Below the pieces are notes generated by a model. That model was given only the letters and a program-made list of their open reading frames with translations, ran no database searches and had not been told where the DNA came from. The translations under genes and the position numbers were made by a program. This document shows, piece after piece, positions 19,312 through 50,217 of a stretch of 64,000 bases of DNA (the first letter of the stretch is position 1; the number at the start of each line of letters is the position of its first letter). The DNA is from a virus (Duplodnaviria; Caudoviricetes), in the IMG/VR virus record IMGVR_UViG_2758568506_000001, positions 7,710-71,709 of that record. One strand, 5' to 3'.

Positions 19312-19635
19312 TTATCTCCTTTTGTACCAGTAAGTTTTAACATCATATTTGTCATAGGCACTAATAATCTTTTGCAATACGATTTCAATTAGTTTGTCTA
19401 GATTATCCCATTTACCTATTGCATAAATTTCTTTATCCCTATTAGACACAATTTTACCCAAACATGCGAGATTGTAGTCTGTATATCCATCATCTGTAAC
19501 CTTGCAATTATTTCCATCTGCATAGCCTATTACATAGAGTTCCATCGAATCACTGAATGGATCTAATGCGTCAATTGCTACTTTCCACGTGTTCTTCTTG
19601 ATTCTAGTCATTGCATACTGCATTTTGTGCCTCAT
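19312..19635 (-). CDS. Hypothetical protein, DUF1828-like
   Basis: DPFSDSMELYV..VTDDGYT..L..LG pattern. Confidence 0.45.
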   Translation of the reverse strand: MRHKMQYAMTRIKKNTWKVAIDALDPFSDSMELYVIGYADGNNCKVTDDGYTDYNLACLGKIVSNRDKEIYAIGKWDNLDKLIEIVLQKIISAYDKYDVKTYWYKRR

Positions 19636-20341
19636 TAATTCTATTTTTTGCTATTTCAAAATATTCCTCGTCTAACTCCATACCAATAAAATCTCTGCCT
19701 GTTTCTACACATGCAACACCTGTTGAACCCGAACCCATAGTATTATCAAGAACAACGCCACCGTTATTAGTATATGTTTTAATTAAATATTTTAATAAAG
19801 CAACAGGTTTCTGTGTTGGGTGCATACCCTTACGACTTATGCTTTTAAAATCAATTACATCAATGGGATATCTATCTCCTGATGATTTACTGCCTTTATA
19901 TTTTTTAGCTGATTTAGCGCTGATTTTATAGTTAGTACTAGTTGTTGGATTATTTTTTATACAGTATGGTTTAAAACCTAATCGCATTTGAGGATTGTAT
20001 ATTGGCAAATGTTTATAAAAAATAGAAATGTTTTCATGTTTTCTTAAAGGCATTTTATGAGATTGAAGAAAGCCAACTGCTTTTGATTTAACCCATATCC
20101 AATCATAGCGATACATTTTTTCATTACTCATTCTCAATTTACTGCTAAAAGGCTCTTGACCAAACAAGGCTATACAACCGTTATCCTTAATTATCCGATT
20201 ATACTGAGACCACAACTTATCAAAAGGAATTACAGTGTCCCAAGCATTATCTGTGATACCGTACGGTAAATCAGCCAAAATCATATCAATAGATTTATTT
20301 TCAATATCTTTCATTAACTCAAGGCAATTGCCTTGTTCCAA
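19604..20341 (-). CDS. Orphan DNA methyltransferase (N4-C/N6-A, beta group)
   Basis: DLPYG catalytic motif; HPTQKP; LDNTMGSGSTG SAM-binding motif. Confidence 0.9.
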   Translation of the reverse strand: MEQGNCLELMKDIENKSIDMILADLPYGITDNAWDTVIPFDKLWSQYNRIIKDNGCIALFGQEPFSSKLRMSNEKMYRYDWIWVKSKAVGFLQSHKMPLRKHENISIFYKHLPIYNPQMRLGFKPYCIKNNPTTSTNYKISAKSAKKYKGSKSSGDRYPIDVIDFKSISRKGMHPTQKPVALLKYLIKTYTNNGGVVLDNTMGSGSTGVACVETGRDFIGMELDEEYFEIAKNRINEAQNAVCND

Positions 20342-20366: not shown

Positions 20367-20393
20367 AAAAAAGACAGCTTAAAGCTGTCTTTT
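20367..20393. terminator. Bidirectional intrinsic terminator
   Basis: AAAAGACAGCTT/AAGCTGTCTTTT hairpin with A/T tails. Confidence 0.7.
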
Positions 20394-20501
20394 ATTTTTT
20401 ATTAACATAAAACAAAAACCTCATATCATTGCCATAATACAAGATACAAGGCTCTGTTAGTTCGACACCTACTCCTCGGGCCCTTCGAACTTGATCCTTA
20501 A

Positions 20502-20583
20502 GTGGAGTGTCAGGATTCGAACCTGAAGTCATTGACAGATAGCTACAAACATACAGTTTCTGCAATTAATCCACTACACTCCA
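20502..20583 (-). tRNA. Degenerate tRNA-like element (possibly Tyr-GTA pseudogene)
   Basis: Perfect 7-bp acceptor stem TGGAGTG/CACTCCA and T-arm TCAGG-TTCGAAT-CCTGA; D and anticodon arms irregular; no CCA. Confidence 0.4.
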
Positions 20584-20712
20584 TAATGCAATACGTTCTG
20601 GGTATACGTATTGCTATCACACAATCAGGAATCGAACCCAATTATGTTTACTACCGAAGTCCGCTCGCCAAGTGCTAACTCTCAAAAACACTTTATGGGT
20701 CGTCGCAGACTA

Positions 20713-20755
20713 TTGCGGTAGCAGGACTCGAACCTACTTACAACCATTACCGCAA
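20713..20755 (-). ncRNA. 43-nt tRNA-elbow-like RNA, copy 1
   Basis: TTGCGGT-AATGGTTGTA-AGTAGG-TTCGAGT-CCTGCT-ACCGCAA; covaries with the copy at 49494-49536. Confidence 0.6.
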
Positions 20756-20819
20756 CTCCGAAAGGAGGTATTTTAAACCTAAAAAAGCCAGTGTCGAAAG
20801 GCTATTCCCTTAATCTTTC

Positions 20820-20837
20820 GACAATACCATAATACAA
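20820..20837 (-). promoter_or_regulatory. Putative ArpU-activated late promoter (A)
   Basis: GACAATAC-ATAATACAA conserved just downstream of both ArpU genes; -10 TATTAT on the minus strand. Confidence 0.5.
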
Positions 20838-20889
20838 CGTATTATCTCTGCTCAACCTATGATAATCCTATGCAAAACCTATGATGATT

Positions 20890-21363
20890 CTATGATTTTA
20901 AAAAAACTCGTAAATCGTCAATTGAAGCACTATCTTTTTTTCGCCAGTAATCAAGACGTTCAGCGAACTCAACACACGCATTATTTTTTAATTGATAATA
21001 ACGAGCCGATTGATAACCTAATCTTTCTGCGATTTTTGTATCTGGCATCTTTTTTATAAAAAACAAATATAAGATTATTCCGCTTGAATAATTGCAACTG
21101 CTAAGAGCATGATTAACCGCTCTTACGCAAGCTTGAGCGTCGAGATTAACAACTATGCGTTCATCTTGATGATTGCGTCCATCATGTCCGCCAACGTTAT
21201 TAGGGTCAAGAGTTGGGCTTGATATGTCGCTTAGGTGTTTGTTGGCCAGATTAAGATAATGACCAAAGTCTTCTGTAAAAAAATTTTTAACTGCTTGTGC
21301 TGTTTTTGCTTTATCTAACTTCGCTTTCTTAAACAAAACTGATTGCTCAACTCCAATCATCAT
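20890..21363 (-). CDS. arpU: ArpU family late transcription activator
   Basis: KTAQAVKNFF, ISSPTLD, IAERLGYQ..YY.LKNNACVEFAE. Confidence 0.85.
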   Translation of the reverse strand: MMIGVEQSVLFKKAKLDKAKTAQAVKNFFTEDFGHYLNLANKHLSDISSPTLDPNNVGGHDGRNHQDERIVVNLDAQACVRAVNHALSSCNYSSGIILYLFFIKKMPDTKIAERLGYQSARYYQLKNNACVEFAERLDYWRKKDSASIDDLRVFLKS

Positions 21364-45932: not shown

Positions 45933-48167
45933 TTATTCAAGCTTAATATTTTGATTGCCTTGTTCATAAACATCAATTCGATTCTGAACGTCAATTTTGT
46001 TTACCAACCAGCCACGAAAATTTGCTTGTTGAATAAAGTCATCAATTCGATTAACATTGTTCATTTCTTTTAGAGTAACAACAATACCAAATTTCAGACC
46101 TCGACCATCTTTGTTAGATAATCTTTCCTTCTCCCTGAGTTCAATTCCCCAAATTGGATCTTCACCATAAGTACATCTCGGTCTTGGATTCGTTGTAATC
46201 TGCTCACTGATGGTCTTAACATTATCCCATTTTCTGAACTGCTTTCTGGCCATTGCCTCATTAACTAGTGGGTAACCATCATTTTGATGATTATTATTAA
46301 TCGATTTGATTTTGGCTTTACCTTTAACACTCTGTAACCGACCAAAAGACAGGTCAAGTTCTGTATTAGTGTAGTCAACCCCTTGATTTCTTGTGCACTT
46401 TGGAAAATAACACAGAGTTGCTTTGGCAAAAAAAGGATACTTATTTTTAACAACAGGAACGGGAATTTGATAATTATAAGTATTCCATTTTTCTGCTATA
46501 CCTTCTAAGGTAAACTTAATCTCATTATCAGGACAATTAATAATATCTTCAATTCTAACAGGTACTACACCATTGCCTATCATTTCAAGATCCCCATTAG
46601 TTTCATTTTTTCTGGACCAGCCAACTGATGAATCGATCAACAAGGCCTTAGCAATTTCTCTGCTAAGTCCCAAAATATCAATCAAGTAAGCTAATTTTCG
46701 TGCAATCCAAGGAGCAGCAAAAGAAGTCCCGCTCACAATAACTTCACCATTAGGACCATAAGCCTTGAGAGGATTTTTTTTATCACCATCATAATAACTT
46801 AAATCTGGTTTAGTAAAAAAAGATAAAACTATTCCCTTACGCGAATATGGTTCTGGGTTACGGCTACTATCAACAGCATTTACAACAACTGAATTAATTG
46901 AGTCAGCAGGAGCACCTATTTTTTTTGGAGGCTCACCTAGCTCTTTATTAGTACCAGCAATTACAAAAAGCACATTATTTTCAAATTGAATTTCATCTAG
47001 AGCTGCTCCTTCAGCTGATACAAAATTCCGATTAATTTCGAATTTTGAACCTAGCGAAAGATTCCAAACATGAATTTCAGGGTTGGCAACCACCGCTTCT
47101 CTTATACTCTTAATAATGGCGAAAGAACTAAAACCTTTTTCAACTGAGACACCAAAATGTTTAACTCTAAACCTGCCACAACCGTCATCAAAAATCGGAT
47201 TTAATGCTGGGCCATCAACAATAATTGATGAAACAGCCGTACCATGATCATAATCTTCCGAAGTTGTACTGATATTAGAATCAAGCATGTTTTGATAACT
47301 GACCCAGTCATTAAAATAAACACTTTGATCAAAAAGTGTATCAATTACGCCAATTATTGGTTCATCATTAGGGGCTGGAATGCTACGCTGATAAGTATCT
47401 GTTGAGCTCGCAGCAACTGACGGAGAAAGCTGGGCCAAATCCTCAGTCGCCATCGATACTAAGTAAGGCGCTTTTTCCATCAATAAATTAACAGAATCAG
47501 TATCCATTAACACCGTTCTATCATCTAAAAAATTTATCTGATAAGTCTTGATTCCAATTTTATCCAATACTTTACTTAAATCTTCATCCGTTTGATAAAA
47601 GGAAACTATGGAATTGTTATTAATAGAAAAATCAGCTTTCTCCACATCAAATTTAGCAACAAACCAAGCATCTATAACAATTTTTTGAAACTGTGTTTTA
47701 CTAATTGAAAACCGCGGAAAGTCAATTTCCTCTAAATTAGATTTATTATTAAATTGAATATTAGAAACATTTCCATTAAAGTATTGATCTAGGATTTTAG
47801 CGACTTTTTCACCGTCACTAATTGCATTTTTCATTTGCAAATTAGATATTAAATAAGTAATTATGTGCTTTTCATCTTGATCAAACTTAGAGCCAACAAT
47901 CAATTTATCAGGGTCACTACCAAAAAAGCCTTTAATCCGATTAGATTTAGCAATATTTTGGCGATAATGCGCACTAACCAGCATTTTCGAGATGATATTG
48001 TGCTGTTTTTGCCAAAACTGCTGAATGACTTTCAAATCGTTGACTAAGTTTCTAATTATGGTACTGCTTACCATGACACCTTTTCTATTTGGTAGTGTTA
48101 GCACTACCTGACTTTGTGGGTGTTTTTGCTGTTCAAATTTTCCTTTAAGAGTTAAAATTTCATTCAT
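45933..48167 (-). CDS. ietS: S8 subtilase, IetS-like
   Basis: Catalytic triad IGVIDT / DHGTAV / GTSFAAP; coupled to an AAA ATPase. Confidence 0.85.
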   Translation of the reverse strand: MNEILTLKGKFEQQKHPQSQVVLTLPNRKGVMVSSTIIRNLVNDLKVIQQFWQKQHNIISKMLVSAHYRQNIAKSNRIKGFFGSDPDKLIVGSKFDQDEKHIITYLISNLQMKNAISDGEKVAKILDQYFNGNVSNIQFNNKSNLEEIDFPRFSISKTQFQKIVIDAWFVAKFDVEKADFSINNNSIVSFYQTDEDLSKVLDKIGIKTYQINFLDDRTVLMDTDSVNLLMEKAPYLVSMATEDLAQLSPSVAASSTDTYQRSIPAPNDEPIIGVIDTLFDQSVYFNDWVSYQNMLDSNISTTSEDYDHGTAVSSIIVDGPALNPIFDDGCGRFRVKHFGVSVEKGFSSFAIIKSIREAVVANPEIHVWNLSLGSKFEINRNFVSAEGAALDEIQFENNVLFVIAGTNKELGEPPKKIGAPADSINSVVVNAVDSSRNPEPYSRKGIVLSFFTKPDLSYYDGDKKNPLKAYGPNGEVIVSGTSFAAPWIARKLAYLIDILGLSREIAKALLIDSSVGWSRKNETNGDLEMIGNGVVPVRIEDIINCPDNEIKFTLEGIAEKWNTYNYQIPVPVVKNKYPFFAKATLCYFPKCTRNQGVDYTNTELDLSFGRLQSVKGKAKIKSINNNHQNDGYPLVNEAMARKQFRKWDNVKTISEQITTNPRPRCTYGEDPIWGIELREKERLSNKDGRGLKFGIVVTLKEMNNVNRIDDFIQQANFRGWLVNKIDVQNRIDVYEQGNQNIKLE

Positions 48168-49212
48168 CCATTTTCTCCTTCAACATTCTAGCAGCCTGAC
48201 TCTTTGAAATATTCTTTAAGACACCAATTTCTCTTACAGTAAAGCCTTGCCTTTTTAACTTTGTTGGATCAAGATCCTGATTTTGCTTATTCAGAGATTG
48301 ATAAAGTCGAATCAAATAATCAAAATGTGCGTCTGGATTACTAAAAGCTAAAGAAACTTTAATGAGATTTTTCAATTCACCAGGATTAGGAAGAGCAGGA
48401 CAAGTATTAAGAATTTTTTTAAATAACTTAGTATCTCTACTTACTTTAGTAAAATTTTTCAGATAATTATTTAATATTCCAACTCCTATATCATCTACTA
48501 AGTCAGTTTTTGAATAACGATCAAAATTGACGATACTATCAAACCTACGTTGAAAAGCTTTGTCCAGTTGTTTATATAAGTTAGTAGTAGCAATGATGAC
48601 TACTTCCTCATTAACATTATCCAGTGCTTTTAGGATATTAGAAGTAGCACGACCCATTTCTCTAATATCATTTGTATTAACTCGATCCAAAGCAATTACA
48701 TCAATTTCATCAAACAAAATGACTACTTTATCTGGATGTGGCATCCGATTTATTTCATTAAAGACTATTGAAATATTTTTAGCAGTTTGACCCATTTTAC
48801 TATCAATTATTTCATTAAAATCAACAGAATACAAAGACCGTTGTAATAATCGAGCTACTTGCTTGGCTGATTCAGTTTTTCCTGTACCAGGTGCACCTTC
48901 AAACAAAAACTTGTTGATACCAACATGATGATTAACAGCATTCATAATACCTTTAATATCAGCCATAATAGGAATTGGTAAAAACAAAGAAGGACTATCA
49001 AGAGCAATTTTTTTAAAAAATTGACTTTCAAAAGAAATAGACTGAGGCTTAAACATATTAACATTTGAAATTAGGCTCATCACATATTGAGCTAACTGGT
49101 AGTCACCTTCTTCATCAAAGCTTCGTGCCACATCATTAGAAGTCTTTCTAAACAGATTGTCATCGCAATCATAATGGGCACGAATCAAATTAATTATTTC
49201 CTTCTTCTTCAT
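48160..49212 (-). CDS. ietA: AAA ATPase, IetA-like
   Basis: GAPGTGKT, LFDEID, AFQRRFD; overlaps the subtilase start. Confidence 0.85.
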   Translation of the reverse strand: MKKKEIINLIRAHYDCDDNLFRKTSNDVARSFDEEGDYQLAQYVMSLISNVNMFKPQSISFESQFFKKIALDSPSLFLPIPIMADIKGIMNAVNHHVGINKFLFEGAPGTGKTESAKQVARLLQRSLYSVDFNEIIDSKMGQTAKNISIVFNEINRMPHPDKVVILFDEIDVIALDRVNTNDIREMGRATSNILKALDNVNEEVVIIATTNLYKQLDKAFQRRFDSIVNFDRYSKTDLVDDIGVGILNNYLKNFTKVSRDTKLFKKILNTCPALPNPGELKNLIKVSLAFSNPDAHFDYLIRLYQSLNKQNQDLDPTKLKRQGFTVREIGVLKNISKSQAARMLKEKMDE

Positions 49213-49493: not shown

Positions 49494-49536
49494 TTGCGGT
49501 GTCGAGAATCGAACTCGGCTACAACCATTACCGCAG
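49494..49536 (-). ncRNA. 43-nt tRNA-elbow-like RNA, copy 2
   Basis: CTGCGGT-AATGGTTGTA-GCCGAG-TTCGATT-CTCGAC-ACCGCAA. Confidence 0.6.
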
Positions 49537-49637
49537 CTCTTTTTTGCATTTAATGAGGTTAGAAATGAATAAAATCTAGCTAGTTTAACGTCGTTTCGGA
49601 CGGTTTTAAAGCTATTAGGAATTACCCTAATTTTTTG

Positions 49638-49655
49638 ACAATACAATAATACAAT
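49638..49655 (-). promoter_or_regulatory. Putative ArpU-activated late promoter (B)
   Basis: 17/18 identical to 20820-20837. Confidence 0.5.
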
Positions 49656-49701
49656 AGATTATGACCGCCTGGCTTTCGCTCTTTGACCGCTCTTATGTCG
49701 C

Positions 49702-50217
49702 TCAATGACCGCTTTTTGAAATTTCCTCAGCCGTTTCTAAGCTCTCAAAAACTTGTAAATCTTCAATGGATGAGCCATCTTCTTTTCGCCAGAAATCAAA
49801 GCGTTCAGCAAATTCAACACACGCATCATTTTTTACCTCATTAAATCTAGTACTTTGATATCCCAACTTAGACCTAATTCGGTCATTAGACCAGTGTTTA
49901 ATAAAATACAGATAAAGGATAGTTCCACTAATGTGGCTGCAACTACTGATAGTATGATCTACTGCCAGCACGCAAGTTTGAGCATCAAGATTAGCTGTCA
50001 TTCGCTCGTCTTGATGATTAAGCCCATCATGGCCGCCAACATTATTAGGATCAAGTGTTGGACTAGATATATCACTCAAATGTTTGTTGGCCAGATTAAG
50101 ATAATGACCAAAGTCTTCTGTAAAAAAATCCTTAACTGCCTGGGCTGTTTTGGCTTTATCTAACTTCGCTTTTTTAAACAAAACTAATTGTTCAACTCCA
50201 ATCATCATCCTAACCAA
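49702..50217 (-). CDS. arpU: ArpU family activator
   Basis: Clear homologue of 20890-21363. Confidence 0.85.
   Translation of the reverse strand: MVRMMIGVEQLVLFKKAKLDKAKTAQAVKDFFTEDFGHYLNLANKHLSDISSPTLDPNNVGGHDGLNHQDERMTANLDAQTCVLAVDHTISSCSHISGTILYLYFIKHWSNDRIRSKLGYQSTRFNEVKNDACVEFAERFDFWRKEDGSSIEDLQVFESLETAEEISKSGH

Follow-up and report, generated by a model that had tools for sequence, protein, structure and literature searches.

A 43-nt tRNA-elbow mimic downstream of two ArpU-family genes belongs to a widespread structured RNA family and is a candidate cleavage signal

The stretch of viral DNA analysed here (64,000 nt, called the window below) is part of a 71.7-kb provirus record and carries, downstream of each of two genes for ArpU-family late-gene activators, a 43-nt segment that looks like the upper half of a tRNA. 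The question raised by this locus is whether the two segments are functional RNA and, if so, which machinery would read them. A sequence-only reading had described them as an anticodon-less tRNA mimic composed of an acceptor-like stem, a linker and a stem capped by a T-loop; it had placed both exactly, and both are read on the minus strand.

Two copies behind two ArpU-family genes

Copy 1 reads UUGCGGU-AAUGGUUGUA-AGUAGG-UUCGAGU-CCUGCU-ACCGCAA on the minus strand, and copy 2, which has the same architecture, reads CUGCGGU-AAUGGUUGUA-GCCGAG-UUCGAUU-CUCGAC-ACCGCAA. The acceptor-like stem (UGCGGU/ACCGCA) comprises 6-7 bp, the extra outer pair being found in copy 1, and in both copies a 6-bp stem with a G-C closing pair and a 7-nt loop (UUCGAGU or UUCGAUU) forms a textbook T-arm. 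The T-stems have diverged and still pair, as had been claimed: five of the six positions differ (from copy 1 to copy 2, A-U to G-C, G-C to C.A, U.G to C-G, A-U to G-C and G-C to A-U, with one G-C pair unchanged), and the single C.A mismatch, at the second T-stem pair of copy 2, recurs in the relatives L010, L057, L153, L165 and L175. When copy 1 was folded alone, its minimum free energy structure (-16.9 kcal/mol, z -2.6) was the proposed fold. The proposed fold was not recovered from copy 2 alone (z -0.1) because of the C.A mismatch, and this copy is thermodynamically marginal. No third full copy was found in the provirus record with the covariance model R1 (see below).

Both upstream genes score above the cutoff of TIGR01637 (43.1 bits) and also match phrog_248 (Table 1), whereas no Pfam match was found for the gene at 20890..21363. 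The position behind both ArpU genes was confirmed, with distances of 134-165 nt. The shared promoter-like motif that had been placed 65-105 nt upstream lies close to that range, ~60-80 nt from copy 1 and 96-118 nt from copy 2. In both copies it has the form TTGTATTAT(G/T)GTATTGTC(G/A)AAA and contains an extended -10-like TGnTATTGT, and it is conserved in relatives among the ArpU phages (L010, L039, L064, L153, L174 and L190). An array of short repeats lies upstream of each motif (Table 1), and the relatives carry repeats of their own at the same site (GCGGTCA, TGGCAGA, TCGGGTC and GGAAGATCTAGAA). These phage-specific arrays look like ArpU binding boxes matched in specificity to each activator. 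We infer that the motif would be the late promoter and the repeats its activator boxes, in which case transcription would start near 20814 and the element would lie ~60 nt into the late transcript for copy 1 and ~96 nt for copy 2. Because the 11-nt-spaced repeat boxes and the TGnTATTGT -10-like motif are just upstream, the element may plausibly belong to the 5' leader of the late transcript.

The leader segment between the promoter-like motif and copy 2 consists of a hairpin, UUAGGGUAAUUCCUAA, and then CGUCCGAAACGACGUUAAACUA, and it is also present in L010, L024, L057, L064 and L174. Copy 1 and its closest relatives have the leader hairpin GUCGAAAG...CUUUCGAC instead.

Table 1. Positions of the features discussed (in the window, unless a locus is named)
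Feature	Position	Strand	Remarks
ArpU-family late-gene activator, copy 1	20890..21363	-	TIGR01637, 68 bits; phrog_248 (transcriptional activator), 1.8e-32
Repeat array, CATAG(G/A) x4	20856..20894	-	exactly 11-nt spacing; between ArpU stop codon and promoter-like motif
Promoter-like motif, copy 1	20815..20837	-	TTGTATTATGGTATTGTCGAAAG; extended -10-like TGGTATTGT at 20821-20829
Mini-tRNA element, copy 1	20713..20755	-	model R1, 59.5 bits, E 3.5e-13
Acceptor-like stem of copy 1	20749-20755 with 20713-20719	-	
Linker of copy 1	20739-20748	-	AAUGGUUGUA
T-stem of copy 1	20733-20738 with 20720-20725	-	
T-loop of copy 1	20726-20732	-	UUCGAGU
Second structured module	20659..20710	-	stem GUCUGC/GCGGAC around a hairpin; directly after copy 1
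T-arm-like hairpin	20624-20644	-	downstream of copy 1
tRNA-like RNA, 80 nt	20503..20582	-	irregular middle; GGAGUG...UCAGG-UUCGAAU-CCUGA-CACUCC-A
Terminator-like hairpin	20369..20393	.	T-runs on both sides
DNA methylase, first late ORF	19604-20341	-	PF01555, 1.3e-30
ArpU-family late-gene activator, copy 2	49702..50217	-	TIGR01637, 57.5 bits; phrog_248, 1.8e-28
Repeat array, GCGGTCA x3	49662..49712	-	22 nt apart, alternating with GAGCGA; counterpart of the array of copy 1
Promoter-like motif, copy 2	49632..49654	-	TTGTATTATTGTATTGTCAAAAA; same motif as copy 1
Leader segment before copy 2	49581-49630	-	
Mini-tRNA element, copy 2	49494..49536	-	model R1, 59.9 bits, E 2.7e-13
AAA ATPase (350 aa) and S8 peptidase (744 aa)	45933-49212	-	prophage 2; after ArpU leader and mini-tRNA
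Nine mini-tRNA copies	L180:5300-10700	-	in 5.4 kb
rRNA operon leader	L205:5540-5960	-	
rRNA operon leader	L209		
rRNA operon leader	L212:40-470	-	

Downstream of copy 1 the order is a ~340-nt block of tRNA-like RNA, followed by genes for the methylase, an HNH protein, TerS and TerL. Copy 1 is directly followed by ~270 nt (20440-20712, minus strand) of non-coding, RNA-like sequence that received no call from ARAGORN or Rfam. Within it, the second structured module of Table 1 is common to L010 and L039 and shows compensatory changes, an observation that is tentative with only three variants. R1 gave partial matches of 11.7 and 16.5 bits in the 80-nt tRNA-like RNA and the T-arm-like hairpin. L165 and L174 have other long tRNA-like RNAs at the place after the element. 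The terminator-like hairpin separates the non-coding RNA block from the first late ORF; it was scored on the plus strand by the tool used, and a T-run is visible on the minus strand as well. Hairpins of this kind occupy the same place in L010 and L039, and the layout is reminiscent of the PR'-6S RNA-tR' arrangement of lambda, which requires antitermination.

No terminator was found downstream of copy 2, where the cargo is the ATPase/peptidase pair. This pair has a distant likeness to the anti-phage pair IteA/IteS (scores of 97 and 157 bits, which fall well short of the equivalog cutoffs) and may be a defence moron under late control. The cargo that follows the element in relatives varies (methylase, ATPase/protease, membrane protein or a real tRNA-Trp), and among the Lactobacillus phages similarity between relatives stops right after ...ACCGCAAUAG.

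Structure and distribution of the family

Two copies alone are insufficient to rule out chance, which was ruled out by a wider sample of 69 relatives. An earlier search pattern, the 16-mer TGCGGTAATGGTTGTA, mostly matched an unrelated coding region; six of its distinct matches were true elements, and it was replaced by AATGGTTGTA-N5-GTTCGANTC, which combines linker and T-loop. Searched against IMG/VR, the latter revealed the motif in 88 viral contigs, nearly all of which have both stems paired although the stem sequences are very dissimilar. In an alignment of the 69 distinct copies (A1), 95.0% of the stem cells are paired compared with 49.5% after shuffling, a value that none of 500 shuffles reached. 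Changes on both sides occurred at 12 of the 13 pairs, and the covariation score was 1.136, as against 0.207 in shuffled alignments and 0.14-0.23 in registers slid by 1-3 columns. The covariation on which the sequence-only reading had staked its proposal is therefore present in the larger alignment.

The firm part of the structure is the 6+6 = 12 inner pairs, which are kept in 97-100% of the 69 copies; a seventh, outer pair is formed in 35 of them. The G53-C61 pair closes the loop in all 69, with the caveat that the search pattern itself fixed this G, this C and the loop, but copies found by the model free of that constraint still keep GUUCGANUC. Among the inner pairs there are 38 G.U and 8 A.C combinations, and from this excess we conclude that the fold is selected on this one strand.

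The covariance model R1 gave no match in a negative control of 888 kb of unrelated viral DNA, whereas in the element-bearing loci it found ~46 further, more divergent copies. These copies reveal the part of the linker that is important: the consensus is AAYGGUU and then 2-4 variable bases, with a penultimate base that is usually a pyrimidine, and the GG is present in all of them. The likeness to a D-loop first seen in the two window copies extends to the divergent members. The D-loop of tRNA has the pattern A14 R15 Y G18 G19 U, and by analogy the linker fits a stemless D-loop whose GG would dock on the T-loop as in the tRNA elbow.

The 3' tail has the consensus A-C-U-A, with C at +2 in 48 of 69 copies, CC in 3 and a complete NCCA tail in 3. 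It resembles CCA yet avoids CC, which would fit access by RNase Z, an enzyme that is blocked by CC after the 3' strand. The first pair is A-U or U-A in 51 of the 69 copies, the third pair is G.U (the equivalent of G3.U70) in a single one, and the stems vary freely; the element has no feature that would serve decoding or confer a fixed aminoacylation identity. The two copies in the window are members of a large structured RNA family, widespread and unnamed, in which only the top half of a tRNA is present.

As for its genomic position, the element falls between genes and in sense orientation: when ORFs of 80 aa or more are considered, the nearest one shares the strand of the element in 121 cases and is on the other strand in 28. 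Of random windows drawn from these loci, 62% fall within ORFs. A stop codon lies within 15 nt upstream of 16 of 72 copies (mode, 7-12 nt), and a start codon follows within 50 nt in 17 of 73; over the whole set, the distance to the start codon ranges from 13 to >300 nt and is often 13-60 nt. An all-against-all BLAST of the flanking ORFs revealed no common protein family except ArpU in the Lactobacillus group. The association with ArpU, which holds for both copies in the window, is thus not general; the family is widespread, and the sequence-only reading had underestimated its scope. The phages that carry the element between genes span at least six bacterial phyla. When the region from ArpU to the element was compared by blastn with 50,697 GenBank phages, no match was found.

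Two kinds of copy number stand out. Multi-copy phages have a copy in each gene gap, up to 9 in total, with every copy on a single strand and with differing stems. In the uncultured phage L180, in which each of the nine copies has stems of its own (Table 1), most gene gaps contain the mini-tRNA, a UUGACAC-N4-GUGUCAA hairpin, the Shine-Dalgarno sequence GAGGAGG and ATG, in this order. The stem of this inverted repeat is invariant and its 4-nt loop is variable, and instead of being only a structural hairpin the repeat may be an operator or the site of a protein. The genes of this operon are small, and their PHROGs matches were only to families of unknown function. The second kind is represented by five complete phages of 155-289 kb with exactly one copy each, which in three of the five is located among tRNA/tmRNA genes. 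In several jumbo phages the element lies within a tRNA array, and in L143 it ends 4-6 nt ahead of tRNA-Ala. The jumbo-phage loci L119, L142, L155 and L159 have their own tmRNA and 13-23 tRNAs, which as read by ARAGORN include four-base anticodons and suppressor-type CUA anticodons. Three jumbo-phage contexts had diverged too far for a useful alignment.

In bacterial genomes (one per species) the pattern occurred in 21 stretches, ~15 of them with stems and 6 without; the 6 stemless stretches are chance matches and serve as an internal control. The true copies come from Bacillota, Bacteroidota, Caldisericota, Fibrobacterota, Chloroflexota and Actinomycetota, and they include 6 species of bee-gut Lactobacillus, probably the host group of the window.

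A cellular, non-phage use is represented by the rRNA leaders of Flavobacteriaceae. In Candidatus Marifrigoribacter (both rRNA operons) and in a related Flavobacteriaceae MAG, the element is located ~200 nt upstream of the 16S rRNA gene on the same strand (Table 1). A TAnnTTTG promoter box precedes the element by ~35 nt, and a boxB-like hairpin and a boxA-like GUUCAUUGA follow it. The copies of the two species are one compensatory change apart. Among 141 family members and 35 relatives, of which part of the candidates were scored and many MAGs contain no rRNA operon, no rRNA-leader copy was found outside the two genomes already known.

What the element may do

The leading hypothesis, to which we give about the same weight for as against, is that RNase P and RNase Z recognise the element as a minimal substrate and that it would serve as a portable signal that says "cut here". 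In tRNA, the acceptor stem and the T-stem stack to 7+5 = 12 bp, a distance that RNase P, RNase Z and the CCA-adding enzyme measure, and for all three the minimal substrate is an acceptor/T-arm helix of 12 pairs whose elbow is intact; acceptor/T-arm minihelices, the McClain/Altman model substrates, are reportedly accepted. The transcribed mini-tRNA would present a helix of 12 stacked bp (6+6) with an elbow in which a canonical T-loop meets a stemless mimic of the D-loop (AAYGGUU...), and it would have no anticodon arm. RNase P would then cut at the 5' edge of the element, and RNase Z, or RNase E together with exonucleases, would cut 3' to the unpaired base adjoining the 3' strand. Both cuts together would sever the upstream RNA from the downstream RNA. 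Applied to the window, such processing would strip the 5' leader from the ArpU-dependent late transcript and set the 5' end of the RNAs downstream, that is, the ~340-nt tRNA-like block and the late genes in the case of copy 1 and the ATPase/protease pair in the case of copy 2.

The element, or in the last case a tRNA-like unit that resembles it, is encountered in five contexts (gaps between cistrons, tRNA arrays, an rRNA leader, a late-operon leader and the published tRNA introns described below, which need to be excised), and one cutting role is the explanation that best unifies them. The conserved 12-bp ruler, the CC-avoiding tail, the proximity to stop codons and the copies in gene gaps, tRNA arrays and rRNA leaders all support it. 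Other observations argue against it. G1-C72 is typical of RNase P substrates, whereas A-U or U-A predominates at the first pair of the element; copy 2 alone has marginal thermodynamic stability; and one copy per 155-289-kb phage or per Lactobacillus late region looks more like a gene with a product. The near-invariance of the linker may also exceed the needs of a mere cleavage signal. Three functions had been proposed from the two window copies. The wider family favours the first, a processing signal; the second, put-like antitermination, fits poorly with phages that have one copy in each gene gap; and the third, a decoy, may still apply.

An alternative that we regard as unlikely, albeit a serious contender, is that the released mini-tRNA of 41-46 nt is itself the product. 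It would be stable and probably CCA-tailed, and it would act in trans on a reader of the acceptor end or of the elbow, candidates being a defence toxin modifying or cleaving tRNA 3' ends, RNase P or RNase Z, the CCA-adding enzyme, EF-Tu, a T-box or the ribosomal contact of the elbow. The phages with exactly one copy, three of five amid tRNA/tmRNA genes, are what one would expect of such a product, as is the one copy of the Lactobacillus phages, which adjoins other tRNA-like RNAs or a real tRNA-Trp, and the strong retention of the elbow-forming linker across hosts of six phyla points to a universal partner. This explanation has to contend with an aminoacylation identity that is not conserved (G3.U70 in 1 of 69), with the absence of a co-occurring partner gene among the flanking ORFs and with nine copies of differing stems placed precisely between ORFs, which exceed the needs of dosage; moreover, the bacterial rRNA-leader copies are hard to square with anti-defence decoys. 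The cutting and the trans-product readings are not exclusive, given that release would need the same cuts. A dual use of one universal module by phages of many phyla, with cis cuts by host RNase P and RNase Z placed anywhere (gaps, leaders and, in anticodon loops, as a new type of tRNA intron) and the CCA-tailed RNA accumulating and acting in trans as a decoy of acceptor-end factors or toxins, strikes us as rather unlikely.

It is improbable that the element acts in cis with no excision, as a structure that folds fast and serves either as a shield against Rho or a terminator (put- or EAR-like), as protection of mRNA ends or in the tuning of translation. Its place soon after an inferred promoter in the window, in relatives and in rRNA leaders would suit such a device, as would its position ahead of the terminator that precedes the late ORFs (copy 1, L010 and L039) and the frequent occurrence of a start codon 13-60 nt downstream or of a stop codon 7-12 nt upstream. 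However, the 12-bp tRNA ruler, the T-loop and the GG elbow would be left unexplained, copy 2 is not followed by a terminator, and the copies in tRNA arrays and in every gene gap, as well as start-codon distances of 13 to >300 nt, are unlike a promoter-proximal device.

We consider it very improbable that the site works at the DNA level, as a landing pad or recombination boundary at which variable cargo is swapped, in the way that integrases use tRNA 3' ends. The break in similarity of the Lactobacillus phages after ...ACCGCAAUAG and the different cargo found each time would be accounted for, but the compensatory changes and the ratio of 38 G.U to 8 A.C reveal selection on a single-stranded fold, no integrase gene is adjacent, and the copies of one genome differ in their stems. 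Finally, phage tRNA genes do decay, and copy 1 has a weak Rfam tRNA match, yet the identical, precise deletion of D-stem and anticodon arm in ~90 lineages, together with 95% pairing and a conserved linker, leaves a negligible probability for functionless remnants of tRNA genes.

Comparison with known RNAs

The view that the element belongs to no named family was upheld by Rfam 15, which gave nothing at gathering scores. With loose thresholds, the tRNA model RF00005 matched copy 1 with 16.9 bits (E 1.1; gathering score, 29), and no match to copy 2 was found at E <= 10. ARAGORN found 0 tRNA and 0 tmRNA genes in the window, in keeping with an anticodon-less mimic in which a 10-nt linker takes the place of the D-arm and the anticodon arm. 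The element shares with tRNA the T-arm with G53-C61 and UUCGANU, a 12-bp stack, a GG capable of pairing with the T-loop and an occasional place in tRNA arrays; it differs in the lack of D-stem, anticodon arm and anticodon and in a stack of 6/6 instead of 7/5. With only the linker where a cloverleaf has a D-arm and a 7-nt anticodon loop, it is not a tRNA.

Other candidates were rejected on similar grounds. The tRNA-like domain of tmRNA (RF00023 clan), including its reduced forms, likewise combines an acceptor stem and a T-arm with a stemless D-loop analogue, but the element has no G3.U70, encoded CCA, helix 2 or tag reading frame, and its Rfam scores were 6-12 bits. The bacterial Y RNA YrlA is also a tRNA mimic, whose tRNA-like module interrupts a long Ro-binding helix and whose locus is close to an rsr gene; the flanks of our element are unpaired, the Ro-binding helix is absent, no Rfam match was found, and the neighbours are ArpU, methylase and terminase genes. 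The element is not followed by the U-tract of an intrinsic terminator, and it is not a recently mobile repeat, as copies of one genome carry different stems. The RNA mascRNA of MALAT1 and the viral 3' tRNA-like structures are tRNA mimics read by tRNA enzymes, and in the case of mascRNA cleavage by RNase P and RNase Z sets the ends of the host transcript. Unlike the element, these are eukaryotic or plant-viral, and no Rfam match to them was found. In the literature, likewise, we found no account of the family in free-standing form, of its linker or distribution, or of its contexts between genes and in rRNA leaders.

If the cutting hypothesis is true, a minimal tRNA of 41-45 nt would be a general punctuation of transcripts in phages and in some bacterial rRNA operons. 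To our knowledge, the principle of tRNA punctuation has so far been demonstrated in mitochondria and in a few eukaryotic lncRNAs, and not in phage operons. It would also explain how neighbouring cistrons are uncoupled in some compact phage genomes, a task for which T7 uses RNase III sites. The tRNA-shaped introns of megaphages, as yet unexplained, would become more open to a mechanistic account, and annotation pipelines would gain a new RNA family with a very clean covariation signal. As a natural minimal tRNA elbow that has no D-stem, the motif is of interest for RNA structure and as a small part for programmed RNA cleavage.

The nearest published likeness by sequence and shape is found in the Lak megaphages, whose 'enigmatic' tRNA introns of 79-93 nt are without an Rfam hit (Devoto et al. 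2019, PMC6784885, Table S6) and are also noted in PMC13037316. Compared by eye, the tRNA-Phe intron contains an acceptor stem, a linker that includes AAUGGUUAUU and the T-arm AAUGG-UUCGAUU-CCAUU, and the ...CUA at the end of the tRNA-Tyr intron recalls the tail consensus of the element. The Lak units differ in being longer and nested in anticodon loops, and PMC6784885 gives no description of a function or family. Nesting in a tRNA was observed in 0 of 112 element-bearing loci, where the ARAGORN intron search gave only artefactual introns of 0.7-2 kb, and tRNA halves are absent alongside the window copies.

In function, the element comes closest to plant-mitochondrial t-elements and to the punctuation of mitochondrial transcripts by tRNAs (PMC1920247), with mascRNA next. 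The t-elements are non-decoding tRNA-like folds beside coding regions, at which RNase P and RNase Z make mRNA ends (Forner et al. 2007, PMC1920247). They are organellar, unrelated in sequence and mostly closer to a full cloverleaf, whereas the phage and bacterial element has a linker of 9-11 nt, and its cleavage is proposed here by analogy. What the element shares with t-elements and tRNA punctuation is its intercistronic position, its sense orientation and its closeness to stop and start codons.
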